Shown in pieces: positions 7,650 to 53,784 of a stretch of 64,000 nucleotides of DNA. Source of the stretch: Patescibacteria group bacterium (GTDB lineage Bacteria; Patescibacteriota; Patescibacteriia; Magasanikbacterales; UBA922). The stretch's first letter is position 1. Every line of letters begins with the position of its first letter. The stretch covers positions 2,677-66,676 of the forward strand of contig JAHJIX010000024.1 in NCBI GenBank assembly GCA_018823045.1, given 5' to 3'. The position numbers were made by a program, and so were the translations under genes. The notes beneath the pieces are model-generated. The model was given only the letters and a program-made list of their open reading frames with translations. It was not told where the DNA came from and did not search any database.

Positions 7650-7738
7650 GCGGAGAGGGCGGGATTCGAACCCGCGGTCCGGTTTGACCCAGACAACACA
7701 TTAGCAGTGTGCCACTTTCGGCCTCTCAGTCACCTCTC
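7650..7738 (-). tRNA. tRNA-Ser(GCU), type II with long variable arm; CCA not encoded
   Basis: The reverse complement reads GGAGAGGTGACTGAGAGGCCGAAAGTGGCACACTGCTAATGTGTTGTCTGGGTCAAACCGGACCGCGGGTTCGAATCCCGCCCTCTCCG. Acceptor stem is GGAGAGG/CCTCTCC. Anticodon stem is GCACA/TGTGT with loop CTGCTAA, giving anticodon GCT. The variable stem-loop is long. T stem is GCGGG/CCCGC with loop TTCGAAT. Confidence 0.8.
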
Positions 7739-7801
7739 CATTAATTGTATACACGGATGGATTTTTTCACTCTAATAGGCCTACAATACTGCCTTTTTTG
7801 T

Positions 7802-7891
7802 GTGGCGGAGAGACAGGGATTCGAACCCTGGGAAGGCTTTCACCTTCAACGGTTTTCAAGACCGCCGCCTTCAACCGCTCAGCCATCTCTC
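7802..7891 (-). tRNA. tRNA-Ser(UGA), type II; CCA encoded
   Basis: The reverse complement reads GGAGAGATGGCTGAGCGGTTGAAGGCGGCGGTCTTGAAAACCGTTGAAGGTGAAAGCCTTCCCAGGGTTCGAATCCCTGTCTCTCCGCCA. The anticodon loop is CTTGAAA, giving anticodon TGA. There is a long variable arm, and the T stem is CAGGG/CCCTG. Confidence 0.8.
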
Positions 7892-7943
7892 CATATATAT
7901 TTAGTTGTTACGAGGGTCATTATATACTATTTTTAAATATTCG

Positions 7944-8678
7944 TCAATATCTTCTCTTTTTACTCCTCAATACCCCCCGAGCAACACTAAACCCCCATAC
8001 ACTATGCCCTTGCTCCTTTAATACTCGCGCAGCCTCCTGCATAGTTGCTCCAGTCGTATATACATCATCAACCAATAGTATATTTTCCCCAACGTGTTCT
8101 TGTGAAATATAAGCAAAAGCATCTTTTACATTTAACAAACGATCTTCTTTATTACACAGTGCTTGCTGTTTTGTCTGACGAGTACGTTGTAATAATTTTT
8201 GCTGTGAAATATTCAATTGCTTAGCTAAAATACTCGCAATATACTCTGATTGGTTAAATCCACGCTCTGCATAACGTTTTTTATGTAATGGAATAGCCAC
8301 CACAACATCAATTTTTTCATATACTTCTGGATATTTTTCCAACAACTGTTTAATACCTTCTTCTACGTATTGTATGCAGTCTTCTTCAAACTGATATTTC
8401 ACTCGATCAATAGCTTGAACCAAGACCAAATCCATATCATACGGGCACAGTGCAATATGTTGCTTTAAGTTTGACAAAGCCCGACAAGAAATACACACTT
8501 GTCCAAATTCTTGATCTATCTGACATATTGGACACAAAAACATCTCTTGAATCGAGATGTTTTGTTTACATGTTTTACAACAAACATTTCCCTCTTTTTT
8601 ACAGACTAAACAATAACTAGGAAATAATGCATCCAGACAACACTGTATGGCTCGCTTCCCCCATCTTGCGAGCAGCAT
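7944..8678 (-). CDS. comFC: ComF/ComFC-family competence protein (double zinc-ribbon N-terminus plus phosphoribosyltransferase domain)
   Basis: N-terminal Cys pairs CLVCKK..CCKTC...CPICQ...CISC. The PRTase signature ILLVDDVYTTGATMQEAARVL is present, with an RGFNQSEYIA...QQALCNKEDRLLNVKDAF middle block typical of ComF. Its ATG at 8678 lies 2 nt from the stop of the upstream gene (8681), so it appears to be in the same operon. Confidence 0.8.
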   Translation of the reverse strand: MLLARWGKRAIQCCLDALFPSYCLVCKKEGNVCCKTCKQNISIQEMFLCPICQIDQEFGQVCISCRALSNLKQHIALCPYDMDLVLVQAIDRVKYQFEEDCIQYVEEGIKQLLEKYPEVYEKIDVVVAIPLHKKRYAERGFNQSEYIASILAKQLNISQQKLLQRTRQTKQQALCNKEDRLLNVKDAFAYISQEHVGENILLVDDVYTTGATMQEAARVLKEQGHSVWGFSVARGVLRSKKRRY

Positions 8679-9282: not shown

Positions 9283-11196
9283 CTAATATCCTTGCGGCGA
9301 TTGCCCGGTTTGTTGTACAAAATCTTTTTTCGCTTCTTCAATTTCGAGTAACTGTCGCGGATCTGAGGTAATCAACTGATCTTCTGTATATGATGCGACG
9401 ATCTTAATAGCAGCATGCTTGAGTCCTGCAAAGAAAATCCCTTCTCCTACCCCACTTTCAAGCAACAAATAGCGCTCCCCTTCTGTTAACATAAATGTTT
9501 TTTGAATCATATCAATCGCTGCAGGAGACTGACGCAATAGTAATTGAAGTGCTGAATTCGTTACAATTGCTTTTCCATAAGAAGAACCCAAAAAGTCATT
9601 CACATCTTGTGTAATCGTTGTTACTCCTAAATAATATTTACGACAACGTTTCACTAATGCATAGATAAACTTTGCAGAATCTTCATGCATCATTAACCAC
9701 CAGGCCTCGTCAATAATAAGCAAGCGTTTTTTCCTTTCGCTACGAACAATATTCCAAATATAGTTAATCAAAGTATAAATTGACATTGGACGAAGCTCAT
9801 CTTCTAAGTCACGTACACTAAACACCACCAACTGATTACTCATATTTACATTTGTTGGCGCATTAAAGAGTCCCGCAAATGTTCCATCTGTATACTTTCG
9901 TAATTTTAATACCAAATTTTCTGCCCCTTGCATTCCTTCTAAGACATCTAAAAAATCTTGCATAATTGGTGCCTCAACGGTCGCCAAATTTGATGAAGGA
10001 GTAATGTCTTTTTTTGCATATGTCTCAAGCAATGCCCGATCAACAATAGAATCCTCTTGCGGGGTCATACTACCAAACATGATCCGAACCAAACCTTTGA
10101 GAGTAATGACGGCACTGCGAATAATATCTTCTGTTGAAATTTGTTCTCCCCCGAGTGGTCGTGGTAAATCAAATGGATTAACATTACTTTCTGACGCCAA
10201 AGAAATGTTAATGTACGTTCCACCCACAGCTTCACTTAAATGTTCGTATTCTTTTTCTGGATCAATAATAATAACATCAATTCCCATCATCAAACTACGA
10301 AGTACCTCTAATTTAACGGCATAAGACTTCCCTGCACCAGAAGTCGCAAACACCACCATATTTGCATTTTGCAATGAAAAACGATCAAACAAGACTAAAC
10401 TATTATTATGGCGATTAATCCCATACAAAATACCATTATCACTCGTTAACTCAGAAGAAATAAACGGAAATGACGATGCAATCGGCGATGAATTCATGTT
10501 AAACGGAATATTCAAATCATCAATCCCGAGTGGTAATGTTGATGTAAACCCTTGCTCAGCCTGATACAACACATGTTTGGTATAAATCAATTTTGACCCA
10601 AACATATTTTCAACATCTTCGGTTACCTTATCTAGCTCTTTTTGTGAAGAAGCATACAGGGTAACATAAAATGCAAACTGAAAAAAATGCTCAATCCCTT
10701 GGGTTAAATCATCTCGTAATTGCTCAATATCTCTAAGAGCAGTTTCACGAATCGGATCACGAGGAGCTCCTTTTTCTGCATCGGCTGACAACTGTGCTTG
10801 AATTGCTCCTACTTTTTTCTTTAATTGTTTTAAAATAATCGTTGACTTGACCGGATAAAAAAACATGCTCAAATCCATGGTCACATTAATATTTAAAATT
10901 GGGGCGCTCCAACCAACAGAAATATAGCGAGGATAAGACACGACAAAAATTGTCCGTAAAAATGTCTCCCCTAATTGAATAAACGTTGATTCAACCCGAA
11001 AGGCTGCTGGCGCAATTAAATCTCTTATCGCAACGGTTCCCTCTCGATAAATACGCTCTTCTTTTAGCGTCACCAATTCTTCTTTTGTTTGTGTTGTATC
11101 ATGTTTTTTCAAAAAAAATCCACGCCGTTGTTTTTCTGGCGTTTGTTGTTTTTTTGGAGCAGAACCCTGCCCGTTTGTCATTGGACTAAATGGCAT
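9283..11196 (-). CDS. VirB4/TrbE/CagE-family conjugal-transfer-type ATPase
   Basis: Walker A is VVFATSGAGKSYAVK. Walker B carries the family-typical DEAW signature (RLLIIDEAWWLMM). A C-terminal GxGxGIFF-like block (ESGVGEGIFF) is present. The ORF is 637 aa. Confidence 0.75.
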   Translation of the reverse strand: MPFSPMTNGQGSAPKKQQTPEKQRRGFFLKKHDTTQTKEELVTLKEERIYREGTVAIRDLIAPAAFRVESTFIQLGETFLRTIFVVSYPRYISVGWSAPILNINVTMDLSMFFYPVKSTIILKQLKKKVGAIQAQLSADAEKGAPRDPIRETALRDIEQLRDDLTQGIEHFFQFAFYVTLYASSQKELDKVTEDVENMFGSKLIYTKHVLYQAEQGFTSTLPLGIDDLNIPFNMNSSPIASSFPFISSELTSDNGILYGINRHNNSLVLFDRFSLQNANMVVFATSGAGKSYAVKLEVLRSLMMGIDVIIIDPEKEYEHLSEAVGGTYINISLASESNVNPFDLPRPLGGEQISTEDIIRSAVITLKGLVRIMFGSMTPQEDSIVDRALLETYAKKDITPSSNLATVEAPIMQDFLDVLEGMQGAENLVLKLRKYTDGTFAGLFNAPTNVNMSNQLVVFSVRDLEDELRPMSIYTLINYIWNIVRSERKKRLLIIDEAWWLMMHEDSAKFIYALVKRCRKYYLGVTTITQDVNDFLGSSYGKAIVTNSALQLLLRQSPAAIDMIQKTFMLTEGERYLLLESGVGEGIFFAGLKHAAIKIVASYTEDQLITSDPRQLLEIEEAKKDFVQQTGQSPQGY

Positions 11197-18358: not shown

Positions 18359-18441
18359 GGAAAATAGTATTATGTACCCATATGTGGATATATTATACCA
18401 TATTATTTGATCTATGTGAAAGGATGCTTTCTACGATGTTG

Positions 18442-19494
18442 TTATACCCTAAAATAATGATGTACAGCAAATTCAAATTGTTTTTTAAATAATTCTTTAA
18501 AATAAGAAATATTTTGTTGCTCATAAAAAAGAACAACTGCTTTTTTATATTCAGCATTTTCTACTCCTCTAAATGATAGCGGGCAAATATCATAAGCAAA
18601 TAAGAGCGCATTGCCCATTAATCGGCTCGTCCGTTTATTTCCATCTTCAAATGCTTGAATATATGCAATGCACACCATAAGTAATACCACCTTATCAAAT
18701 GGGTTTTTTGCTTTGTTTACTAATACACAAGTTTTTTCTAATGCTTCACGTATCTGAAATTCATTATCAAGTGGCAAATACTCTGTCCCCACAATCCGCA
18801 CCATTGTCTTTCGCAAATTTCGAGAAATACCCAAATCCTTGGTCAATAATGAATGAACATCTTCAACCTTTGCAACAGAAATATCTTTAAATATATCTGC
18901 ATTTTTTTGAATATACTCTAAAGCAAATTTATGATTTAATAACATTACACTTTCACTATGACTATGATTTGGTGCTTCTTTTGCTTCTTTAAGTAATACC
19001 TCTGTATCAAGCAAAGAGTAAGTATTCCCCTCTAATTGAGAAGATTTCCAACTCAGCTCAATCATAAGTCGTTCATATTCCTTTTGCAATAATGTAGAAG
19101 AAAGCTGTTGTTTATGTTTTCTATATGTAGTATTTAATGCTTCTAACTCTATTATCTCATCTTCATTAAATATGTTAGTTTCCATATCAAACACAGAAAA
19201 ATCAAATTGCTGATTTATTTTTCTTTGATCAAATTCCGTTTGAAAATACTCCTCAACATTAACAGGATATAACACCTTATACGTTGCAGATAATATATAT
19301 ACCAAAGCCCTTCCCTTTCCTTTTTTCTCTAGATATTTCAAATCAAGAAGAACATTTATATCTCTATTTACCGTAATCTTTGAAATGTTTTCCTCAGTAT
19401 TTTGTAAAAAAGACAATAAATCAGAAATAGATCCTTCATTATGTTCTTTTATATATGCAAGAATATACTCTTGTCTCTTATTTATTTTGATCAT
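18442..19494 (-). CDS. Fic/DOC-family protein with N-terminal DeoR-like winged helix; catalytic His of the Fic motif replaced (QAFEDGNKRTSR)
   Basis: The N-terminus MIKINKRQEYILAYIKEHNEGSISDLLSFL is DeoR-like. The conserved Fic block SSQLEGNTYS is present. The region aligning to HPFx[DE]GNGRxxR reads IQAFEDGNKRTSRL. The start is ambiguous: in-frame candidates are ATG 19494 (chosen, best for the HTH domain boundary), ATG 19515 and GTG 19530. Confidence 0.6.
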   Translation of the reverse strand: MIKINKRQEYILAYIKEHNEGSISDLLSFLQNTEENISKITVNRDINVLLDLKYLEKKGKGRALVYILSATYKVLYPVNVEEYFQTEFDQRKINQQFDFSVFDMETNIFNEDEIIELEALNTTYRKHKQQLSSTLLQKEYERLMIELSWKSSQLEGNTYSLLDTEVLLKEAKEAPNHSHSESVMLLNHKFALEYIQKNADIFKDISVAKVEDVHSLLTKDLGISRNLRKTMVRIVGTEYLPLDNEFQIREALEKTCVLVNKAKNPFDKVVLLMVCIAYIQAFEDGNKRTSRLMGNALLFAYDICPLSFRGVENAEYKKAVVLFYEQQNISYFKELFKKQFEFAVHHYFRV

Positions 19495-19503
19495 AAAAAA
19501 GTT

Positions 19504-19593
19504 TAATCGTATCATTTTTAAGTAAAACACTCCTCTAATCGTATCATAAATGATACGATTAAGCTACTTTTTAGGCCTAAAATGATACGATTA
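19504..19593. promoter_or_regulatory. operator-like array: four copies of the 12-mer TAATCGTATCAT, two direct and two inverted, including a perfect 26-bp palindrome
   Basis: TAATCGTATCAT occurs at 19504-19515 and 19536-19547. Its reverse complement ATGATACGATTA occurs at 19550-19561 and 19582-19593. The central pair forms TAATCGTATCAT-AA-ATGATACGATTA. The outer copies are each 32 bp away. The array is immediately upstream of, and overlapping, the start region of the wHTH-Fic gene. Confidence 0.5.
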
Positions 19594-19761
19594 GTGCTTG
19601 AAATATTATTTTTTAGCTTATTTAAGCTATTTTTTAAAATCACTACAAAACCTTATATTTATTGCTTTTTATCACCATTTTTTACAGTAAATAACCAAAA
19701 TACAACACAAGCAAATAAAAAGATATACACAGGAACTTATCCACAAATACCCCTTAGCAGT

Positions 19762-19790
19762 TGACAAAATGATAAATATGTACTATAGTC
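19762..19790 (+). promoter_or_regulatory. sigma70-like promoter (TTGACA-17 bp-TATAGT)
   Basis: ttgacaaaatgataaatatgtactatagt. Consensus -35, a 17-nt spacer, and a 5/6 match at -10. It points toward the plus-strand gene at 20004. Confidence 0.4.
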
Positions 19791-20003
19791 GGGATATAAG
19801 GCTATATAGTATTTAGAATAAAATATTTTATTATAGTATAATATAAGCAAAGTGTCAAATGTTACATTGTGGATAAAAATTAATCCTTAGGGAATATACA
19901 GAGTGAGCACTGACAATCTGTCAGTGAGTACGCTAGATGTTCCTTAATCCTAGGGGACATCACAACCATTGCGCTACTTGCAGGAGTAGCTAAGGAGTTC
20001 CCG

Positions 20004-20378
20004 ATGCGCAGCATCAACCCCGCGCTCCTCTTGAGCGCAATTCTGTTCCTTTTCCCGATCTTCTTCGGGGCTTGCGCCGAAGAAGAGGACTTCCCCACAA
20101 CAGATGAGACTTTCACAGAGTCTCACCACCAAAATCCCCCCATCGTCGACAAGGCGGACTCCCCTCTGGAGTACCCGCAAGAAGACGCGGGTGTCGAAGA
20201 TGAACCACCACCTGACGATAAAATTGATTATACCTGTGCTACAGCAACAGGCAGGTATGATGGAGAGTATTGCCCAGGCTTAGACTCAACACTTCACTAT
20301 GATTATACTACATGTCGATATACCTGTGCAGGTGATCCTGGATTACCTGAAGAATTAGTAGACCATGTATGTAATTAA
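20004..20378 (+). CDS. small secreted, possibly lipidated, cysteine-rich acidic protein
   Basis: A strong SD (taaggagttcccgATG) precedes the start. The signal peptide is MRSINPALLLSAILFLFPIFFGAC. An acidic linker follows. The C-terminal domain has 6 Cys (CATATGRYDGEYCPGL...CRYTCAGDPG...HVCN). The local GC content is visibly higher than the flanks. Confidence 0.55.
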   Translation: MRSINPALLLSAILFLFPIFFGACAEEEDFPTTDETFTESHHQNPPIVDKADSPLEYPQEDAGVEDEPPPDDKIDYTCATATGRYDGEYCPGLDSTLHYDYTTCRYTCAGDPGLPEELVDHVCN

Positions 20379-20510: not shown

Positions 20511-23500
20511 TTAAGGAATCACAATTACCTTTCCAGCATAATCTGTCCACGGATAAATATCCTTTGCGATTTCCGCAGTTTTATTAGCAGGAGAACATTG
20601 TGAAATATTATAATTACTTACACTTGTTTCGACACTTTCATAACAACCCTTTAATAGACTACCTACAGGATCAACATCAGAACTTCCACCATACTCCCCG
20701 ACACACTCACCATTACACCAACCCCAATTATCTACCACTGTTACTCGTGGAGTGTAGACACAAACGTAATCATCTAAAGAAAGCCCTTGTGCAAGTAATC
20801 GTGAAGTATCATCAGGTAAACTTTTTACTTGTTTTACATAATAAGGAAGTACATAATTAGGATTTTCTGCTTTTTCTGCAGCAAGAATATTAATCTTTCC
20901 TTTTTCACAATGATACTCATGCATAAACTCAAAGTACTCCTCTGTACAAGCTCGAGGTAAATCACCAAAATGTTTCGGTTCACCAAAGAATTTAGTACAA
21001 ACACCTGTAGGACAAGCCTCTTCAGAGTCAAGCGCTAAATCACAAGCTAAATCATTATAAATATTCTTACCATTCACATTATCGACACAATAGCCCACAG
21101 TCATATCACCTGCATCATCACTTTCTTCACAGACTGGTTTTCTATTTTTATATGACCCCGATCTATTTGCATTGGTTTTTTTGCTATTATCTGCCCAATC
21201 AACAGTTACCCGACTAATTGGCATATGATTATGATCAGCAATTGCAAAGAATTTGAGTGTTGCAACATAACTTGTTTTTGCAATAATGGCATCAGCTTTC
21301 CCGTCTCTATTAAAATCTTCATCAGGGAGACCATCACCATTGTAGTCAGTCAATGTCTGATTTCTATCTCCAACAGTTATATTATGTAATTCCCCCGCCG
21401 TACAATTACTTGTTTCATTACAGGTATATGGATTAATTGAGTATATTTGTGGAATTTTAGATCGAATTTCCTCACTACCGTTATCAAAAGATGTATCAAC
21501 TTCAACATTCACTTCAGGAACCCCCATACCAGAAGCAGAAATAATATCTACATTATTTCCTTGGCCATAAGTTACTCTCCCTAACTTATAAAATTTAGAA
21601 AATAATTCATGAAGGTTATCATATGCAGTATTAATATTATCAACACTCGATATTTCATTCTTTAACTCATCCTCAATACCAGGGAGATCTAACGTCCCAC
21701 ATTTTTGAGGAATAGTACCACTAATTTTGATAGGAGTATTACCAAGCAAATTTGAACCCAACCAATCTGACACACAACTATATGGAATACCAGGATGAAC
21801 ACCTGCAGTAAGTCCAAATCCATATGAACTTAAAGCATCTTTATTTTCTGATGTTATTGCATTTCCTGATAAAGATAATGAACCAAATGGAGCATTCAAA
21901 ATATCTTTTGAAAGACTTGGATAGTTTGTTAAACTATAACTTTTAGCATTTTTCCATACACGATCGGTCCATGCCTTATTACTATGCACTAATTGATTAC
22001 CACCATTATTATATACTTGAGTAAACTCAGTACAGCGATCAGCGACTTCAGCAACAACAGCATAACGAGAAAACATTACCCCACTTGCATATTGACCCTG
22101 ACTACACCACCTACTAATATACCCTAAAAACTCACCTTCTTTATTAAAATCTAAACCAATAGCTAACCATGGTGAATGTGTCAAATTAACAGTATCATCT
22201 ATAGAAGGATAAGCAGTACAATCTTCTAAGATAAATGGATCATACATTTCTGGATTTAATCTAGTAGTAGAATCAATCTGCTTTCTTGGAACTAAAGCTC
22301 TAAAATCAGAACCCTGTAAACCTGAATTATCATTAACTACTTCCCAAAAATTAGCAAAATTTGGCATGTATCTACCTTCATCAGTAAATTCAGATCTTCC
22401 TGTAGATAATATAAACATATACCGCTTGTCTATATTATTTCTTTCAGAAACATCTACATTACCCACACTATCATAATCAATATAAGAAAAATCTCCTAAT
22501 AATTCTCCTCGTTTTAACATATATGTAAATATTTGCCAACGAGTATTACCACTTGGTCGTATTGCAGAATTCACTTGCGCAGCTAAAATAGGACTTTCTA
22601 TAGCACCTTCTCTTAACGCAGCAAAATCAATATACGCATCATTAGAGTGCTTATCATTCCCCGCAAAAATTCCTTCATATAACGGAACAAAATACAACTT
22701 ATTTATATCTTGTTCACGAATAATATTTTCAAATGGTGAACGATAGAGACTCTCATCTATACCAAAAATATCAGTATAAATTTCTCCAGGTGCATTAGCC
22801 CCTAAATGAATATTACGAGTATACAAATTATTATCAATTGCTTGAACAGATACAGGATTTTCGTTATCTAAATCAAAAATGGGTGGGTGCATTATTGTAC
22901 GACCAAAAATTTCTTCTGCGTTTTCAGTATTTGGCGCAAAACTTACTGGTGAAAAGTCTTGATTACCCATTCCAGAATTTTGGATATTAACACTCTCTGA
23001 ACGCTCAAAACGTAATATAACATTATTAGCAGGCTCCTCTTCAGTTCTAAACTCATGCCAAAGCATACTATACAAACCTGTATATATATCTTCTTTTGTA
23101 AAAGAATATCTTCCACCATTAAATTTACTATAAACATCCTCAATAGTATTATCTAACTCCTTAAATACTAACATATCTTCATCATACGGCCCTAACCCAG
23201 CATTACTTGCCTGTGTACAATACACCTCTCCACCATCTCTATACTCACCTCCATTTGCATCAAGACTCACGGCGTCTTCATCCGGATAATATCCTGCACG
23301 TGGATCTAAGTTATAAATATCAATAGGACTAGCAGACATTTGAATTGGTAACCAAGTAAGACAAGTACGCCCTTCACCATACGGAATAGGACGACTATCG
23401 TCATACTCTAAACAATACCCACTGAATCCTAAAAATGTTTCTTTTTTTTGTGCCCGTGAACAAACCCCCGGTATATCATTATCACCTGGAGAATCAATAT

Positions 23501-26500
23501 CAGGTCTATATTCTGTACACCCACCATCATCAACACAGGGCTTACCGTCATATTTTCCACCAAGACAAACACCATCAGGAACAGTGACACCATTATCAAA
23601 GTAATCAACAATATTATCTTTATATGTTACCTTTGTATAATCACAAGCACAACCACCTTCACTTTGGCAAACATTTGCCCCTTCATAATCTCTAATAGCA
23701 ATAGTACTCTTTCGTCTTTTTACCGCATTATGCCCCGTAATCGTTTCATTATTGTCTTGAAGCACTTCTGTACTATATGGCGCATCAACTTCTGCATAGC
23801 CTTTACAACTTGTTGGCTGTAAATAACTGATTAATGATAAGATATTATCAACCTGCTGTTGTTCTGTATGAGAATCAAGCACGGTTAAGTCCCCTGGAAA
23901 ATTTCCATCCATAGGGAAAATACATTGCTCATTATAACAACGACCACCAGCGGTAAATCCACACATACGCCAATCGGTATTTTGATCAAGATCTAATACA
24001 TCAATATAACAATCTAAATCTTCTTCACCGACATGTTCAAAAATTTCATTATTTAATACCCGTGCTAAAAATGATTGATTTTCTATTGCTTTGATGTTTC
24101 TTTGTGTTGATGTTGCTAAATTATCTAGCTCATAATCTTCACTCAAATCAAATGATATATAATCAAACTCTCCTATTGGATATCTATTAAAAAGTGAATA
24201 ACCCGTATACTCTTCATCATGCCAAGAAATACCACGCGTCACATATTTTTTATAATCAAGTGGACGAAGTGCCTGATTTCTTACTGTCACATCAGAAGAA
24301 AGGACTTCTTCAAAATCATCGGCCCATCTACCACAAGAAGAAAAGCCTTCACCAACTTCTTCACAGGCTTTATATTCATAACACACATGATTTTTATTTC
24401 CAGAGTCATCTGTATATGGCATATAGGTAGAACAAGCAAGCCACTCACTACATTGGCGATCTCTTGTAACCTCAATAATAATGTTACTATCATTATATTG
24501 TGTTGATGCTGGCGTTACTTTTCCGTACGGTGGTTCTACATTTTCACTATTTTCATATGTTTGTGCTGCATCAAAATATTTATTTGGAATAGCGGTTTGA
24601 TCAAATAATACACAACCTTCAATTAAACTCACAGCACCATCACATTTTTCTGCACCAATATGTTGTTTTAATCGATCATTATATAAGTAATAATACGGTT
24701 TTCCGTTTGGATATTCTTCTGAAATATCAATCCTATCAACAAACTCACTACATTGATTATATTCTGCCGGGCATACCCCAACAAACCCTTCATATTGGTC
24801 TGAAGCACTACTCCAAATGTCATATAACCCACCACTTCGTTGATAATCAGCATAACACGGAACGTTTCCTATATCATTACAGGTATTCCCATCACCACAG
24901 TTCGCATCTTCTCTACAACTGAGTGTCCCATCTTGACTACACTGTCCAACACCTTCACGATACCAACCATAGCCATCAACATCAGCATTTGGCTCTTTAT
25001 AATAACAAATGGTTTGCCCAGTAAGTGCAGGGTCTTTAAAGTATGCTTGTCCCCCACTCATGCCATACGCACTACAAGCAACAACTTCTTCATGACAAAG
25101 AATTTGATCATACACACGTGGATCATTTTTTATCATGACATCATTATAGCGATAAATCGTACTCGTTGCTTCTCCTGGCAGAAATTGATCTTCTTGCCCA
25201 ACAAGTTCACAGCCCATGGTATCCACACCATTATCACAACGTGCTTCTTTATTATTTGTTAAATACAATGGTGCATCCACTGCAGTATCCGCTGGAATAA
25301 ATACTGTTGAAGGAACAACAAAATCTTGAATATAGTCTAAGCCCTTTCCTTCAGGGAGGGTCACGTGATCTACATAACATCCGGTGCCATTTCTTGGCAC
25401 AATACATGAATCGCCTAAACTATTACCACCTACAGTAATCGTACAATTTTCTTCGTCATTTCCTTCACACCAAAGCATATATGCTTCTGCTTTTGTATTG
25501 TTTAATGTATTATATGTATCCCACATTGGCATACAACCCACTGCACTTGCACGACAAAGTTGTTCAAACTCGGTTGCATAACGCAATTGATTATCTCCAT
25601 CGGTATATGCCTCACAGCCTAAATATGCGCCAGGAAGACCATCTTGTGGCGTTGCATCACAAGATAAAGGTGTATTCCATGAATCTTTAATTAAATACGC
25701 TAAACCATCCCACCTGCTTAATGACACATGATCAATAAAATATGGGATATCTGTATTATTTTGTCTACGCAAAACTAACAGTAATGGTTGTGTTGTATCA
25801 ATATCAGTTATTTCTAGCGGCCCAAATTCATAATTATTCCAATTACTACTCAAAGATACTTCAGAAACAAATTCTCCAACAATATTATTGCCTTGTTGCA
25901 ATTGAATCGTTAATTGATGATCAACTCCTTTTGCCCAAAATGCTAATTGAAATACATTATTATCTTTAAATGTTGCGATCGTTGATGTAGAAATTGTTCG
26001 TAAAATACGAGAAGATTCCACTTGCAAAGAATGGAGACCTAAGTCAGTCGCTTCCCCACTTACACGAAGACTTCCATCATTATCATTGTGGCTCCAATCA
26101 CTCATCGCTTCTACTAATGCTTCAGGACTATCGTTTGTTGGCTCAAAATCATCTTCTGGTTCAAAAAGATATGCAACATTTCCGGCTTGATTCCCAGTAA
26201 ACGCACGACAACCATTTTCTTGTTGAGTACATGTTGGTGACGCCCCAGGTAATGTCTGATAAACACATGCACCATCAAGATATTCACCATTATTTTCACA
26301 TTGAATACATTGATCATTTGCGGCATCCCATGTTCCACGGCGCCCTGAACAATATGCCCCTGGCACATCAACTGCTAAAATTTCTGATTCTGTTTTTCTT
26401 ACCGCATAACAATCTTCAGACACCCACACCGTTTCTGTCAGTAATCGATAATAGGTATTCCCTTCATCATCGTAGAGTAAATGGCAGGTTGTTGGTGCAG

Positions 26501-29300
26501 CCTCAGCATTGTATGGATCATCAATCTTTAATACATAACTGTCTTCATTACATAAATCATTATTTTCAATTAATGATTCAGCGATATCATTTGCATACAC
26601 GGGAGACCCTTCAGGGAAAGCCGCTAATACTGCTGACGCTTCTGCACCAACATAGAGCCGATCTTCTGCAGAAACAACACGCAATTGCATAGTTTGTAAA
26701 TTATACCCACCACTTAACGATCCTTCCCAAGTATAATATGTTTTTTGATTATTTTCTGTAGGCAATTCACAATGACGAATATCCGTATAGTATTCTAACT
26801 GCTCTCCACCAGCAGGAACAGAACCTAAATTGGTAAACTCACTACAACCAACCGCTTCTGCAGTACAAGTATTTGCGGTATCTGGAATAAAGTATACAGG
26901 AAATTCAGCTGCTTCAAATGCACTTGCTTCTTGTTTAAATGAATCATAGCCCACACATGCAGATGGACAAGCATTTGCTGAACCAATAATTGCCGGAACA
27001 GTCAAGCCACCATTTACCGGAGTAAATGAATCACAACCCACTTCTTCTTCAACACAAACATGCGCATAGTCATTACACTGATCATTACTTAACACTAACT
27101 GCTGCGCTTGTGTTTTTGTCTCTGGCCAATTTATTTCTGGAGAGTCAAGCGCTGTATTTGTATCATAACACCCTAAATACTCTGGTGCTTTTTTAATAAA
27201 TATATATCCCTCACTTGATGGATTACTCGTATAGTCTCCATTACCATCAATCGTTGATGGAATAAAGGCATGACAACCGTCATCTGCACTCGTACAGCTA
27301 TTATCATTTTGTGATTTAATATATTCTACAGGATTTCTGCCTACTGCTTGATATGCAAAGAGGTCACCCTCAAACGTATCAAGAGAAACCCACTCTCCCC
27401 CTTGCTTTTCTGCAGAATACGCCCGACATCCAACACTGTCTTCATTGCACTCAGCACTATCAACAGTACGAGATAAATATGACGCTACTTTATTTGTACC
27501 ACTTTGTACATAGGTTTTACAGGTATTATATTCACTCGGGCAGGCATCACCATCAATACGCCAAACATTTTCTTCTTTTGTACAATAGCCAAAATCAAGA
27601 CAATTACCATTATCATCTTTTCGTAAACACGTAGAAATATCTACACACTCTTCTCGCCGTGTTGCAATTTGGCTATTTTCTAAAAATGGTCCAGGAACTT
27701 CCATTTCACAACGTGCATCTGGCGCCATAATAATCCAATTTGGATTAATTAAGTGACAAAATTCTTTATTTGCACTCACAATAACTTTTGTTGGATCATT
27801 TTCATCGTAAATACAATCATCAAAACCGTACACAACATCTTGCAATGTCCACGGATTATCAGGATCAGAATTTAGTACTGCAACCTCAAATCCAAGAGGC
27901 AATATACGTAATTTTCTTAATTTTTGAATATTTGAATAACAATAATAATCATTTTGACAAGCCTCAATATCGCTATGAGCAATATGTGTTGGCGGAATAA
28001 GTGGATTATCGCCTAAAAGTCCTATATCAAGTGCTTCTTGTATTGTTAATGGTTCACCAACATTTGCCTGTGCTAACAACTGTTGCAAATTATTATCAAT
28101 AATACAATTATTTGTCCCGGGATTATCAGGACAAATAGACAACTCAGAAATGACATTAAAAGACTTTTGTGTATGAATTTTTGGAATAGTGGTAAACAAA
28201 AAGTTAAATGCACGCTCTACTTTTTTTCTACTCGTAAATGTCCCCGCATAAAAATCACTTAAAGAATCCGAACCCGCTCCCGAACCATCCTTATTTTCTC
28301 CCCTCTCTGGGAATAACCCTTCTGTAAGAACTCTTGATAATAATTGTGTTGTTAACGTATTTAAAAATACAGAACCAGCCATGGGCAAAATCTGTGAAGC
28401 ACCACTGCCATAAATACCTGCAACTTGTGTCGCAGAGAGTGTTCCTTGATGTTTTGCCGTCAACGCAGTTGTTTCTTCTTTTATAATCTGCGCTGGTGTT
28501 TTGACATCACCTGCAATAGCTGAAGTAAGTGACTTAAAGCCATTTCCTTCTAAACGCTCAGCCTTTGCTGATTCTTTTTTTTCTTCTCGTAGACGATCGA
28601 CTTGTGCAATTGCACCTAATGCAACACCTAAACTAGAGTTAGATACTGAAATCGTTTGACTAAATGTTCGATCAAGCCCTTCTGTTGTACCATAACGCTC
28701 TGTCCAAGCATCTGGATCAAAAATACCACCGTTTTTTAAATCTTGCCATTGACAATTTGGCTGCGGTCCAGAACCTGGATATAATTGTGGAATACCAATT
28801 TGTAAAAATATATTAAATTGTGCGTCTGGTACAGCACATAAATTTAAACCAAAAGGCTTCCCCAATTCTCCTAAACCATCAGCCATAGATTGATATACTT
28901 CATGTTCTAAATAACTTCCAAACCCATCCTGAAAGACTAAAGCACTTTGCCCTTTTCCACCGTGAGCTACATAGTTTGCTGTATCATACGCTAATTTTCG
29001 AGCAAAATATGATGATGCATGTATCAGAGAACCTAACCCTGCGGCAAGAAGAGAATTGTAAAATTCTTGCCGCGCTCTTTCTTCTGCAGCAAGAGCCATC
29101 CTTTGTGCCTGAGCAGCAGCAGCAGCTACAGTGGCTTTAGCTGCCGCAGTAATATTAACCCCAATAGAAGAAACATCAATAACAGGAGCCCCTTGAGCTG
29201 AAACATTTTCAGGAATACCCAAACCAAATAGTACCTCAACACTCAGCACAATCGCAATCAATGGAATAATCAAAAATTTTGGGAGACGAGATGAAAACAT
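20511..29300 (-). CDS. giant (~2929 aa) cysteine-rich secreted/surface protein
   Basis: The ORF track gives 20511..29360. The ATG at 29300 lies 1 nt after the stop of the upstream gene and gives MFSSRLPKFLIIPLIAIVLSVEVLFGLGIPENVSA, a signal/anchor. Hundreds of Cys residues are present. There is a DGDGLPDEDFNRDGKAD calcium-binding-like motif. An internal CBM4/9-like module reads LRVSGEATDLGLHSLQ...FWAKG...YFIDHVSLSRW. There are no internal stops over 8.8 kb. Confidence 0.7.
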   Translation of the reverse strand: MFSSRLPKFLIIPLIAIVLSVEVLFGLGIPENVSAQGAPVIDVSSIGVNITAAAKATVAAAAAQAQRMALAAEERARQEFYNSLLAAGLGSLIHASSYFARKLAYDTANYVAHGGKGQSALVFQDGFGSYLEHEVYQSMADGLGELGKPFGLNLCAVPDAQFNIFLQIGIPQLYPGSGPQPNCQWQDLKNGGIFDPDAWTERYGTTEGLDRTFSQTISVSNSSLGVALGAIAQVDRLREEKKESAKAERLEGNGFKSLTSAIAGDVKTPAQIIKEETTALTAKHQGTLSATQVAGIYGSGASQILPMAGSVFLNTLTTQLLSRVLTEGLFPERGENKDGSGAGSDSLSDFYAGTFTSRKKVERAFNFLFTTIPKIHTQKSFNVISELSICPDNPGTNNCIIDNNLQQLLAQANVGEPLTIQEALDIGLLGDNPLIPPTHIAHSDIEACQNDYYCYSNIQKLRKLRILPLGFEVAVLNSDPDNPWTLQDVVYGFDDCIYDENDPTKVIVSANKEFCHLINPNWIIMAPDARCEMEVPGPFLENSQIATRREECVDISTCLRKDDNGNCLDFGYCTKEENVWRIDGDACPSEYNTCKTYVQSGTNKVASYLSRTVDSAECNEDSVGCRAYSAEKQGGEWVSLDTFEGDLFAYQAVGRNPVEYIKSQNDNSCTSADDGCHAFIPSTIDGNGDYTSNPSSEGYIFIKKAPEYLGCYDTNTALDSPEINWPETKTQAQQLVLSNDQCNDYAHVCVEEEVGCDSFTPVNGGLTVPAIIGSANACPSACVGYDSFKQEASAFEAAEFPVYFIPDTANTCTAEAVGCSEFTNLGSVPAGGEQLEYYTDIRHCELPTENNQKTYYTWEGSLSGGYNLQTMQLRVVSAEDRLYVGAEASAVLAAFPEGSPVYANDIAESLIENNDLCNEDSYVLKIDDPYNAEAAPTTCHLLYDDEGNTYYRLLTETVWVSEDCYAVRKTESEILAVDVPGAYCSGRRGTWDAANDQCIQCENNGEYLDGACVYQTLPGASPTCTQQENGCRAFTGNQAGNVAYLFEPEDDFEPTNDSPEALVEAMSDWSHNDNDGSLRVSGEATDLGLHSLQVESSRILRTISTSTIATFKDNNVFQLAFWAKGVDHQLTIQLQQGNNIVGEFVSEVSLSSNWNNYEFGPLEITDIDTTQPLLLVLRRQNNTDIPYFIDHVSLSRWDGLAYLIKDSWNTPLSCDATPQDGLPGAYLGCEAYTDGDNQLRYATEFEQLCRASAVGCMPMWDTYNTLNNTKAEAYMLWCEGNDEENCTITVGGNSLGDSCIVPRNGTGCYVDHVTLPEGKGLDYIQDFVVPSTVFIPADTAVDAPLYLTNNKEARCDNGVDTMGCELVGQEDQFLPGEATSTIYRYNDVMIKNDPRVYDQILCHEEVVACSAYGMSGGQAYFKDPALTGQTICYYKEPNADVDGYGWYREGVGQCSQDGTLSCREDANCGDGNTCNDIGNVPCYADYQRSGGLYDIWSSASDQYEGFVGVCPAEYNQCSEFVDRIDISEEYPNGKPYYYLYNDRLKQHIGAEKCDGAVSLIEGCVLFDQTAIPNKYFDAAQTYENSENVEPPYGKVTPASTQYNDSNIIIEVTRDRQCSEWLACSTYMPYTDDSGNKNHVCYEYKACEEVGEGFSSCGRWADDFEEVLSSDVTVRNQALRPLDYKKYVTRGISWHDEEYTGYSLFNRYPIGEFDYISFDLSEDYELDNLATSTQRNIKAIENQSFLARVLNNEIFEHVGEEDLDCYIDVLDLDQNTDWRMCGFTAGGRCYNEQCIFPMDGNFPGDLTVLDSHTEQQQVDNILSLISYLQPTSCKGYAEVDAPYSTEVLQDNNETITGHNAVKRRKSTIAIRDYEGANVCQSEGGCACDYTKVTYKDNIVDYFDNGVTVPDGVCLGGKYDGKPCVDDGGCTEYRPDIDSPGDNDIPGVCSRAQKKETFLGFSGYCLEYDDSRPIPYGEGRTCLTWLPIQMSASPIDIYNLDPRAGYYPDEDAVSLDANGGEYRDGGEVYCTQASNAGLGPYDEDMLVFKELDNTIEDVYSKFNGGRYSFTKEDIYTGLYSMLWHEFRTEEEPANNVILRFERSESVNIQNSGMGNQDFSPVSFAPNTENAEEIFGRTIMHPPIFDLDNENPVSVQAIDNNLYTRNIHLGANAPGEIYTDIFGIDESLYRSPFENIIREQDINKLYFVPLYEGIFAGNDKHSNDAYIDFAALREGAIESPILAAQVNSAIRPSGNTRWQIFTYMLKRGELLGDFSYIDYDSVGNVDVSERNNIDKRYMFILSTGRSEFTDEGRYMPNFANFWEVVNDNSGLQGSDFRALVPRKQIDSTTRLNPEMYDPFILEDCTAYPSIDDTVNLTHSPWLAIGLDFNKEGEFLGYISRWCSQGQYASGVMFSRYAVVAEVADRCTEFTQVYNNGGNQLVHSNKAWTDRVWKNAKSYSLTNYPSLSKDILNAPFGSLSLSGNAITSENKDALSSYGFGLTAGVHPGIPYSCVSDWLGSNLLGNTPIKISGTIPQKCGTLDLPGIEDELKNEISSVDNINTAYDNLHELFSKFYKLGRVTYGQGNNVDIISASGMGVPEVNVEVDTSFDNGSEEIRSKIPQIYSINPYTCNETSNCTAGELHNITVGDRNQTLTDYNGDGLPDEDFNRDGKADAIIAKTSYVATLKFFAIADHNHMPISRVTVDWADNSKKTNANRSGSYKNRKPVCEESDDAGDMTVGYCVDNVNGKNIYNDLACDLALDSEEACPTGVCTKFFGEPKHFGDLPRACTEEYFEFMHEYHCEKGKINILAAEKAENPNYVLPYYVKQVKSLPDDTSRLLAQGLSLDDYVCVYTPRVTVVDNWGWCNGECVGEYGGSSDVDPVGSLLKGCYESVETSVSNYNISQCSPANKTAEIAKDIYPWTDYAGKVIVIP

Positions 29301-29301
29301 A

Positions 29302-29925
29302 TTATTGAGATAATGAATCTTCTTGCAACACATCTTGCACCAACAACAATAAATCGTCATTGCTAATGGTGTCTAACTGTTCTTGCGTAATACCCCCACT
29401 TTGTAAGAGTAATGCTCTAATTTGCTCAGGATCTTGCACAACGGCATTCACATCCAATTCGACTTCTTCAGGTACTTGTGGAATAAGACTATCAATAGCC
29501 GCTGTGGTTTCTTCATTTATCCCATTAAATTCAAATACTTCTTCTTCAATAGAAGCTTCTTCACTTCTTATACAATCTTGCCCTGCAGGACAAAGCGGAT
29601 CTTGACCGGCATCTAATTCTTCTTTATCTGTGACTCCATCTGAATCGGTATCTGGTAAATATGGACTTGTTTCGTAAAAATATAATTCTTCATAATTATT
29701 TAACCCATCTTGATCAGTATCAATGGATTGCAAACGCACCGTTTCATCTTCATATAATACTGATCCATCTCGCTCAGCACTTGCGGGTCGCACAACAAAT
29801 GGCCCATACAATGTATTTCTCATTTGTAAAAATCCAAGCCCAACAGCTAACACACAAAAAACAAGCAATAAAACAAATCCTGTTTTTTGCTCTTGCGTTA
29901 ATGGTGATGCGGGATGTTGTCGCAT
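29302..29925 (-). CDS. membrane-anchored protein with thrombospondin-type-3-like Ca-binding repeats
   Basis: A TM helix at GFVLLLVFCVLAVGLGFL is followed by DTDQDGLNNYEELYFYETSPYLPDTDSDGVTDKEELDAGQD (DxDxDG repeats) and an acidic tail. It is translationally coupled to the giant gene downstream. Confidence 0.55.
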   Translation of the reverse strand: MRQHPASPLTQEQKTGFVLLLVFCVLAVGLGFLQMRNTLYGPFVVRPASAERDGSVLYEDETVRLQSIDTDQDGLNNYEELYFYETSPYLPDTDSDGVTDKEELDAGQDPLCPAGQDCIRSEEASIEEEVFEFNGINEETTAAIDSLIPQVPEEVELDVNAVVQDPEQIRALLLQSGGITQEQLDTISNDDLLLLVQDVLQEDSLSQ

Positions 29926-53708: not shown

Positions 53709-53711
53709 ATG

Positions 53712-53784
53712 TGCGCCTAGATGGTCTTGAACCATCGACCCCAACGTTATAAGCGTTGTGCTCTAACCCCTGAGCTATAGGCGC
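53712..53784 (-). tRNA. tRNA with anticodon UAU (presumably tRNA-Ile decoding AUA); CCA not encoded
   Basis: The reverse complement reads GCGCCTATAGCTCAGGGGTTAGAGCACAACGCTTATAACGTTGGGGTCGATGGTTCAAGACCATCTAGGCGCA. Acceptor stem is GCGCCTA/TAGGCGC. D stem is GCTC/GAGC. Anticodon stem is CAACG/CGTTG with loop CTTATAA, giving anticodon TAT. T stem is GATGG/CCATC with loop TTCAAGA. Confidence 0.7.

Follow-up and report, generated by a model that had tools for sequence, protein, structure and literature searches.

The winged-helix Fic gene and its product

The 64,000-nucleotide stretch analyzed here (contig JAHJIX010000024.1 of a Patescibacteria group bacterium; this whole 64-kb stretch is referred to as the window) carries on its minus strand an open reading frame (ORF) for a 350-amino-acid protein, 18442-19494 counted from its ATG, in which an N-terminal winged helix-turn-helix (wHTH) domain is followed by a Fic domain. 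The gene is preceded by four copies of a 12-bp sequence and followed by genes resembling those of a type IV secretion system (T4SS). An earlier note on this DNA had read the protein as a pseudo-enzyme and the repeats as an operator through which it regulates itself and acts as gatekeeper of the secretion operon.

NCBI lists a protein with 100% identity to it over the full length, under the title 'Fic family protein [Patescibacteria group bacterium]'. No paralogue of its gene was found in the window. Three in-frame codons were considered as the start. We chose the ATG at 19494, which agrees with the N termini of homologues and with the NCBI model. The repeats overlap the GTG at 19530 and the ATG at 19515, as the earlier note had said of the candidate start codons, but they do not overlap the likely start, which lies 9 nucleotides (nt) past the last repeat.

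Pfam assigned residues 205 to 298 to the Fic family (PF02661; 43.8 bits against a cutoff of 24) and gave weak winged-helix matches at the N terminus (Penicillinase_R at 8.8e-4 and HTH_DeoR at 0.018), while no NCBIfam model matched the protein. An AlphaFold2 model built from 30 homologues (predicted local distance difference test score, 90.9; predicted template modeling score, 0.85) consisted of an H-H-H-beta-beta winged helix at approximately residues 6 to 68 and then an all-helical Fic domain. DSSP placed the winged-helix elements at residues 6 to 18, 23 to 33, and 39 to 51 (helices) and 55 to 58 and 65 to 68 (strands). Foldseek matched this model to FICD, Caenorhabditis elegans Fic-1, BT_2513, SoFic, CdFic, CccR, and CbFic2, with a probability of 1.00 for FICD, BT_2513, SoFic, and CdFic (template modeling scores of about 0.55 to 0.6 over about 250 columns). 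A family profile found FICD at 3e-14 and CccR at 1e-4, and it aligned the C-terminal wHTH of CbFic2 (8cil) to the N terminus of the window protein at 0.003, with ArgR following at 0.045.

The block SSQLEGNTYS, which the earlier note had described as intact, proved to be the class II inhibitory-helix motif [ST]xxxE[GN]: in a phmmer search of the Protein Data Bank (PDB), SSQLEGNT aligned to TVAIEGNT of FICD. Residues S151, S152, E155, G156, and N157 were invariant in an alignment of 30 family sequences. By its inhibitory helix and its fold, the window protein is a class II Fic protein.

Glutamine in place of the catalytic histidine

From the letters of the core motif, the earlier note had proposed that the catalytic His of the Fic domain is replaced by Gln and that the Pro and a Gly are also changed, and it had called for an alignment to confirm this. 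The phmmer search provided one: the query segment YIQAFEDGNKRTSRL aligned to YIHPFIDGNGRTSRL of FICD, with Gln280 opposite His363 of FICD, Ala in place of Pro, and Lys in place of the second Gly. The His that is otherwise invariant in Fic/Fido proteins is therefore absent from the window protein, while the F, D, G, N, K, and R of the motif and its second R are present.

The Gln and the Lys were seen throughout the family. All 120 of the closest relatives (52 to 59% identity) had Q at the His position, and 119 of them read QPFxDGNKR. We also ran a HMMER search of 1.84 billion cluster representatives (50% clusters), which returned 241 clusters at E values of ≤1e-30, and inspected the best 150: the motif pattern was found with Q in 110, with R or Y in 2, and with H in none, and the remaining 38 did not match the pattern. 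Those 38 were mostly fragments or carried variant motifs; among the 14 that were aligned, Q occurred in 10 and M or S in 2. The Pro-to-Ala change is unique to the window protein among the 120 closest relatives, although QAF recurs in 22 of the 150 cluster representatives. In the 30-sequence alignment, Q280, F282, D284, G285, N286, K287, R288, and R291 were invariant, as was the inhibitory Glu155. The Gln and the Lys are thus family-wide traits and not peculiarities of the window protein.

In a scan of one genome per GTDB species, at least 492 species, including many Bacteroidota, carried family members, and cultured carriers included Neolewinella maritima and a Cyclobacterium strain. Remoter members lie on proteobacterial plasmids, for example in Aromatoleum aromaticum EbN1, where the motif reads QPFEDVNKR. 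One annotated member, on plasmid 8 of Bacteroides finegoldii (locus L201, 3362-4273), lacks the wHTH and begins at a position equivalent to about residue 44 of the window protein; an in-frame stop codon lies upstream, and this truncated copy is near a site-specific integrase gene. In the literature searched, we found neither a functional study of the Gln clade nor a paper on Fic proteins in Patescibacteria.

Since the domain retains neither the His that serves as general base nor the second Gly, which belongs to the anion hole, it is plausible, although unproven, that Fic(Gln) is non-AMPylating; it does not appear capable of canonical His-based AMPylation, which is therefore unlikely. We do not, however, retain the term pseudo-enzyme. 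Because the whole pocket (Q280, K287, the F, D, G, N, and both Arg residues), the flap residues, and the inhibitory Glu are invariant, the site looks retuned and ligand binding rather than decayed; pocket and inhibitory Glu are under strict selection, and the domain most likely still binds a nucleotide or phospho-ligand. By analogy, its output could be that of a gated effector, as in CccR or SoFic, or of a sensor that modulates DNA binding.

Four phased half-sites upstream of the gene

The 12-mer TAATCGTATCAT occurs exactly four times in the 64 kb, and all four copies fall within 19504-19593, at 19504 and 19536 on the plus strand and at 19550 and 19582 on the minus strand. The expected number of copies is 0.01, and none of 100 shuffled sequences reached four. 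On the gene strand they run direct, direct, inverted, inverted, at start-to-start distances of 32, 14, and 32 bp, symmetric about 19548.5. The number, orientation, and 32-bp outer spacing that the earlier note had reported were all borne out. Its "perfect 26-bp palindrome" was not: the two 12-nt arms of the inner pair flank a 2-nt spacer, TT/AA, which lacks self-complementarity. In the outer pair, each arm can be lengthened to 15 nt.

Half-site 3 holds an extended −10-like element, with the TG at 19546-19545 and the hexamer at 19543-19538. A scan allowing up to two mismatches gave 18 matches in the window against 9.7 expected. Apart from the four exact copies none was conspicuous, and the single near-matches at 3019, 23738, and 34597 look like chance. 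Rfam and tRNA scans gave no match in or near the operator.

Upstream of the operator, between 19761 and 19858, two near-perfect sigma-70-type sites stand back to back in the intergenic region, TTGACA-17-TATAAT on the minus strand (19830-19858) and TTGACA-17-TATAGT on the plus strand (19761-19789). No ORF of note lies between the minus-strand site and the operator, and that site may give the Fic gene a long leader or drive a small RNA.

Conservation of the operator across the family

The predicted N-terminal extensions of the homologues (MIRL..., MIRF...) turned out to be translations of ATGATACGATT, which pointed to conservation of the DNA element itself. In members from outside the Bacteroidota, the upstream region has the layout TTGAC, [TAATyGTATCAw], 1 or 2 nt, [ATGATACrATTA], 10 nt, [ATGATACrATTr], start codon. 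Most homologues have three sites ('-++'), and some non-Bacteroidota members have a fourth, 22 bp further upstream. Compared with 1.1 Mb of flanking DNA, the 155 nt preceding the gene showed a 75-fold enrichment of matches to a position-weight model of this class A half-site (ATGATACrATTA). A TTG stands 4 to 6 nt ahead of the left inner half-site in 74 of 94 operators, a placement that sets the TG-n-TAC[GA]AT of the right inner site of these homologous operators at the position of an extended −10 element with the canonical 17-nt spacing.

The Bacteroidota use a different sequence in the same design, AGCTCA-22-AGCTCA-20-TGAGCT-22-TGAGCT, with the orientation '--++' in 20 of 39 loci and a 38-fold enrichment. 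Directly before the last site (site 4), 27 of 32 Bacteroidota operators carry TAnnTTT[GA], which we take to be the −7 promoter box of this phylum. Neighboring sites in the same orientation were 22 bp apart in 24 of 25, 62 of 66, and 93 of 109 pairs. The equivalent of site 4 in homologues lies 22 bp from site 3, against 32 bp in the window, a spacing that no other operator examined shows; the window copy has thus been lengthened by one helical turn (10 bp) on either side.

A symmetric operator lying over the gene's own −35 and −10 elements is a feature of self-repressors of the CccR type, and judged by sequence the family shares this arrangement, though the −35 element is weak in the window. 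We also considered whether repeated −10 boxes might be the whole explanation of the half-sites, and rejected this: copies are inverted, a −7 box distinct from the sites stands between them in the Bacteroidota, and the identity of base 4 covaries with a residue of the protein (see below).

One family gene (locus L029, ~9660-10000) is preceded by two separate operator clusters, at about −340/−300 and at −174/−161/−139, in addition to the sites at −57/−44/−22. On plasmid 2 of A. aromaticum EbN1 (locus L202, ~3900-3970), the gene for the distant 464-amino-acid member with the motif QPFEDVNKR lies beside a partial integrase gene and has its own repeated element, GCGCGCCACATAAAA / CGCGCCA...TGGCGCG, immediately 5' of the start codon. 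The sequence of this element suggests that the autoregulatory design may reach a proteobacterial branch with yet another half-site.

Covariation of the recognition helix with the half-site

Each operator class has its own form of the recognition helix. The half-site ATGATAC... goes with the recognition helix S[KR][IVM]T[IV]xRD[LI], TGAGCT goes with SYAT[VL]KR[IT]L, and TGATAGGATT goes with SxPTLNRDL. Within class A, recognition-helix residue 40 tracked base 4 of the half-site in 106 loci with no exceptions: V, I, P, or A was paired with A in 95 of 95 loci, M with T in 7 of 7, T or F with C in 3 of 3, and Q with G in the single locus (1 of 1) that has it.

The operator also leads back to the gene when DNA alone is searched. 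A metagenome scan for AATCGTATCA-N3/4-TGATACGATT, for which we estimated about 1 chance occurrence, found at least 120 sites. Among the matches listed, a full-length family gene accompanied 69 sites and a partial or degenerate one 9 sites, 10 sites lay undecidably close to contig ends, and 32 were orphans; a family gene or its remnant thus stood beside the palindrome in 78 of the 110 decidable cases. The start of the 69 full-length genes was most often 34 nt from the dyad. At one site (locus L102, operator at ~287-309), the operator is followed by a 45-amino-acid ORF that fuses the N terminus of the family (MLTLNQK...) to its C terminus (...FMDQYAFATQNYAVK) and is an internally deleted remnant of a family gene.

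The orphan operators, of which there are at least 32 among loci L081 to L200 (e.g., L128, L171, L188, L105, L112, L173, and L197), often keep a third site at 22 bp. They adjoin unrelated genes, including AbiEi-like and nucleotidyltransferase genes and, by sequence reading alone, Bro-N/DinD-like and XRE genes. They could constitute a trans-regulon or be relics left after loss of the gene.

At the level of sequence comparison, these observations demonstrate the operator, its link to the gene, and the recognition of the half-site by the wHTH. The proposal that the repeats are bound by the protein's own wHTH is supported: the half-site layout spans several phyla and lies over the promoter, its sites are in helical phase, and half-site and recognition helix covary. 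Self-repression is correspondingly well supported by these patterns.

Relation to the T4SS-like operon

The genes downstream are T4SS-like, as had been stated: they encode a TrbL/VirB6-like protein (PF19590/PF04610 in homologues), PrgI, and a VirB4-like ATPase of the CD1110 family. The first of them after the Fic gene, on the same strand and separated from it by 83 nt, is the TrbL-like gene. When we compared every protein of the cluster with 80 family loci by tblastn, however, there was no match to a TrbL-like, PrgI, or other cluster gene save one VirB4, on the opposite strand. All-against-all clustering of the neighbors likewise revealed no conserved neighbor, including any antitoxin or target, and no neighbor family was present in more than 7 of the 80 loci.

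The operon in turn does without the Fic gene. In the four closest TrbL-like homologues with usable contigs, the order of the TrbL-like, 375-amino-acid, and 534-amino-acid genes was kept in all four; a giant gene lay upstream in three, and PrgI and a TraC-like continuation followed in three before the contig or locus ended. In all four syntenic relatives, the variable slot that precedes the TrbL-like gene is without a Fic gene. The strong promoter-like site that the window has at 18392-18420, in the gap after the Fic gene (Table 1), would permit independent transcription of the T4SS-like operon, and the G+C content of the Fic coding sequence is 29.4%, against 36.8% for the window. Since the Fic gene has no conserved neighbor, is missing from the syntenic operons, is separated from the operon by a promoter-like site, and differs in G+C content, it is best explained as an insertion in a variable intergenic slot, and the idea that it is the gatekeeper of the secretion operon was not sustained. 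Family members also occur on plasmids and have integrases nearby. A phage origin was considered and rejected, 50,697 phage records containing only partial Fic-domain matches and no full-length homologue.

Table 1. Coordinates of features at the wHTH-Fic locus, in window positions
Feature	Position	Strand	Basis or remark
Promoter-like site TTCACA-17-TG-TATAAT (11/12)	18392..18420	-	Promoter scan; between Fic stop codon and TrbL-like gene
wHTH-Fic(Gln) coding sequence	18442..19494	-	350 amino acids, stop codon 18442-18444; ORF list and NCBI match
Fic core motif, Gln/Lys form QAFEDGNKRTSR, residues 280-291	18622..18657	-	Aligned with FICD HPFIDGNGRTSR
Inhibitory-helix motif SSQLEGN ([ST]xxxE[GN], Glu155)	19024..19044	-	Aligned with FICD TVAIEGN containing E234
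N-terminal wHTH domain, ~residues 1-75	19270..19494	-	DSSP on AlphaFold2 model, weak Pfam matches, family profile
Predicted recognition helix SKITVNRDIN, residues 38-47, including I40	19354..19383	-	T41, R44, and D45 invariant in 30-sequence alignment
Half-site 4 (outer, proximal)	19504..19515	.	Exact match; 9 nt from ATG
Half-site 3 (inner right), ATGATACGATTA on gene strand	19536..19547	.	Exact match; holds extended −10-like TG-n-TACGAT
Half-site 2 (inner left)	19550..19561	.	Exact match; inverted pair with site 3, 2-nt spacer
Half-site 1 (outer, distal), TAATCGTATCAT on gene strand	19582..19593	.	Exact match; 15-nt inverted pair with site 4
Distal sigma-70-type promoter-like site TTGACA-17-TATAAT (12/12)	19830..19858	-	Promoter scan; ~240 nt upstream of operator

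A model for the locus and its alternatives

Taken together, these results suggest that the locus is a stand-alone, horizontally moving, self-repressing gene, a reading to which we give a probability of roughly 0.7. The protein would bind its own operator as a two-fold symmetric oligomer with flexible linkers, probably a symmetric tetramer built of two dimers, or a pair of dimers that cooperate, placing four wHTH domains on the four half-sites along one face of the DNA. The inner inverted pair would cover the promoter spacer and the extended −10 element of the gene's own promoter; with base 4 read by the recognition helix, the two inner contacts would lie about one helical turn apart. The outer pair would sit an integral number of helical turns away, two in almost all relatives and three in the window. 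The outcome would be tight negative autoregulation, with the Fic(Gln) domain as the payload. The oligomeric state and the direction of regulation (repression) are what we infer from the arrangement of the sites.

Several points weigh against this reading. The −35 position beside the left inner site is poor in the window (GTAGCT), and the perfect promoter-like site 240 nt upstream of the operator offers an alternative to the weak proximal promoter. The 32-bp spacing of the window was seen in no other operator examined, and the function of the window's copy could therefore be altered. The gap between the Fic and TrbL-like genes showed no terminator-like site, so that read-through into the T4SS-like operon is possible. 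Among the matches listed in the DNA-only scan, 32 of the 110 decidable palindromes had no family gene within 1.5 kb, and the operator is accordingly not strictly private to the gene. That scan fixed base 4 as A, and its loci therefore test only the absence of M, T, F, or Q at residue 40. The sequences compared are related to one another, and the counts overstate the number of independent events. Finally, the GTDB loci were retrieved partly by the pattern QPFxDGNKR, which biases that set towards Gln, although both protein-database searches are free of this bias.

The role of a dedicated gatekeeper, in which the protein would control transcription of the T4SS-like operon from the operator, draws on the position of the TrbL-like gene directly downstream on the same strand, the lack of a terminator-like site on that strand in the gap, and the true resemblance of the downstream genes to a T4SS. 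Set against this are the 80 homologous loci and four syntenic relatives in which gene and operon occur apart, the strong promoter-like site in the gap, the differing G+C content, and the absence from the window of any further operator copy, and we consider a gatekeeper very unlikely. Even more improbable, in our view, is that the nested inverted repeats form an RNA or DNA-cruciform structure, such as a hairpin or terminator in the 5' untranslated region, rather than protein-binding sites. A 121-nt stretch does fold to −32 kcal/mol (z = −5.2), a terminator scan flagged the inner palindrome on the plus strand, and the consensus promoter-like site 240 nt upstream could transcribe through the repeats; yet the three-site '-++' layout of most homologues leaves one arm unpaired, the half-sites of the Bacteroidota measure only 6 nt and stand 20 bp from each other, and the spacers between sites are not complementary. 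Moreover, in 74 of 94 operators the −35 element immediately precedes the left arm, which would then not be transcribed, Rfam gave no match, and a stem predicts neither a fixed 22-bp spacing nor covariation with a protein residue.

The remaining alternatives concern what the Fic(Gln) domain does. Because the sole conserved target is the protein's own gene, some other output is needed, which favors either an effector role or a trans-regulon of the orphan operators. A pure transcription factor, with Fic(Gln) as a dead sensor or oligomerization scaffold and a regulon of operator-bearing genes elsewhere as the output, would fit the loss of the general-base His and the presence of a Doc-like Lys, both arguing against AMPylation, and the orphan operators beside unrelated genes, many with a third site at 22 bp. 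But the inhibitory Glu and seven positions of the canonical motif do not vary from phylum to phylum, a stronger constraint than a scaffold needs; extra operator clusters within 10 kb of 80 family genes were found only once (the locus L029 described above), and the window has no other operator copy. We regard this as possible, with the odds against it. We are more doubtful of a single-gene antiphage defense or toxin module of the SoFic or PDC-S04 type, in which autorepression keeps a dangerous effector at low levels. PADLOC matched SoFic (3.5e-14) and the candidate system PDC-S04 (5.9e-14), PHROG 11900 matched at 2e-28, and the variable, island-like neighborhoods, nearby integrases, plasmid carriage, and, by analogy, the precedent of CccR would all suit such a module. 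The PADLOC matches cover only the generic Fic domain, however, SoFic has the canonical His and a C-terminal wHTH, and no full-length homologue was present in the phage records. For the stand-alone, self-repressing gene that we prefer, a tentative extension would be that the Fic(Gln) domain is alive, as a Glu-gated, nucleotide-binding effector or sensor with noncanonical chemistry. The gene would then be a single-polypeptide toxin- or defense-like module silenced by its four-site operator and spreading horizontally among Patescibacteria, Bacteroidota, and plasmids, with orphan operators putting island genes under trans control; we hold this to be conceivable rather than probable.

Comparison with known systems

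His-less Fic proteins were flagged in silico in 2015 (PMC4454073). In that study, Khater and Mohanty (Sci Rep 5:10804) defined a bacterial-only clade, 'D2', of 45 sequences with the motif Qx[FY]x[DE][GV]NKR, noted the His-to-Gln change, and suggested that D2 proteins are perhaps not dead; they called them usually single-domain proteins, grouped them with Doc, and did not mention an HTH. The window sequence QAFEDGNKR fits the D2 motif and makes the protein a member of this clade, and the EbN1 plasmid member, QPFEDVNKR, has the Val variant. The family described here departs from the 2015 account of D2 in comprising at least 241 clusters at 50% identity and in having an N-terminal wHTH and the class II inhibitory helix. 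By profile and fold it is of the FICD type and not of the Doc type, so the description of D2 as single domain and Doc-like is not borne out.

CccR of Yersinia pseudotuberculosis (PMC9755527; PDB 7xux) is a Fic-HTH protein that represses its own promoter through inverted repeats at −35/−10. It is also an effector secreted by the type VI secretion system, and its canonical His192 is needed for toxicity and for AMPylation of FtsZ (PMC9755527). The window protein resembles CccR in combining a Fic domain, its inhibitory helix, and an HTH in one polypeptide, consistent with the Foldseek and profile matches. The order of the domains is reversed, however, the Fic domain of CccR being N-terminal and its HTH C-terminal, whereas the wHTH comes first in the window protein. 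The CccR operator has two half-sites 26 bp apart, whereas the window has four phased half-sites, and with Gln in place of His192 the window protein lacks, by its sequence, the residue on which AMPylation-dependent toxicity relies.

FICD/HYPE, BT_2513 (3cuc), SoFic (3eqx), and CbFic2 (8cil) were the best matches in both sequence and structure. Like the window protein, they carry the inhibitory helix [ST]xxxE[GN] ahead of the core. The tail of the motif, ...GN-x-RTSR, is identical in FICD and the window protein, and the wHTH of CbFic2 resembles that of the window protein; however, these class II AMPylases all have HPFx[DE]GNGR, and their wHTH, where present, is C-terminal. To our knowledge, none of these four proteins uses a four-site operator.

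The toxin Doc of the Phd/Doc system has the motif HxFx[DN][AG]NKR (PMC2686095). Like Doc, the window protein has Lys (GNKR) where the canonical motif has its second Gly. This Lys in Doc is said, after work by Castro-Roa et al. in 2013, to go with an inverted orientation of ATP and with kinase chemistry. Membership in the Doc group was rejected, as the family profile found no Doc chain at E values of ≤1, and so was a Phd/Doc-like toxin-antitoxin pair, as no adjacent antitoxin or other conserved neighbor was found in 80 loci. Doc itself retains the His, has no inhibitory helix, is about 125 amino acids long, and is neutralized by and co-regulated with a separate antitoxin, Phd. Proteins of the AbiEi type also combine an N-terminal wHTH with a second domain and bind cooperatively to repeated sites in their own promoter, but their C-terminal domain is different and they have a partner toxin, AbiEii. 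A weak PADLOC match to AbiEi (residues 7 to 101; 7.8e-4) was confined to the wHTH.

Relative to the literature searched, what is new is the fusion to a wHTH, the operator of four sites in 22-bp phase that recurs across the family, and the covariation of residue and base, together with the much wider distribution, the orphan operators, and the unique three-turn variant of the window. The Gln-type family is large, being found in at least 492 species and on plasmids, and its active-site changes are fixed rather than decaying. From their sequences, its members appear to bind DNA and to have at their own promoter a conserved operator of four phased sites, and the one-to-one match of residue 40 with base 4 predicts specificity-swap mutants. 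Genetics could be done in the cultured carriers N. maritima CECT 8419, the Cyclobacterium strain, and A. aromaticum EbN1 with its plasmid 2. The reading of the genome is also corrected, in that the T4SS-like cluster of this member of the Patescibacteria is not headed by a dedicated Fic regulator.

Other features of the region

The T4SS-like cluster adjoins a gene for a giant, 2,949-amino-acid protein of a secreted or surface type (20511-29360, minus strand), and the pairing of a gene for a protein of ~3,000 amino acids, variable small genes, and a TrbL-like operon is conserved in Magasanikbacteria-like relatives (L203, L204, and L206). Between the giant gene and the Fic gene, a 124-amino-acid ORF (20004-20378, plus strand) encodes a product with a lipoprotein-like signal peptide and several Cys residues. 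Its G+C content is 49% where that of the window is 37%, and the four syntenic relatives have no homologue of it; like the Fic gene, whose variable slot it shares, it looks foreign. In the T4SS-like operon of one relative (locus L205, 6153-6533), a gene of the 23S_rRNA_IVP family (PF05635) lies between the PrgI and TraC-like genes.

The T4SS-like cluster of the window ends at a ComFC-like gene (7650-8678, minus strand; phosphoribosyltransferase plus double zinc ribbon) together with two tRNA-Ser genes. This arrangement may point to a connection of the cluster with DNA uptake. The window also encodes, at 53711-53784 on the minus strand, a tRNA-Ile with the anticodon TAT (UAU), which is uncommon in bacteria, where AUA is usually read by a lysidine-modified CAU tRNA.

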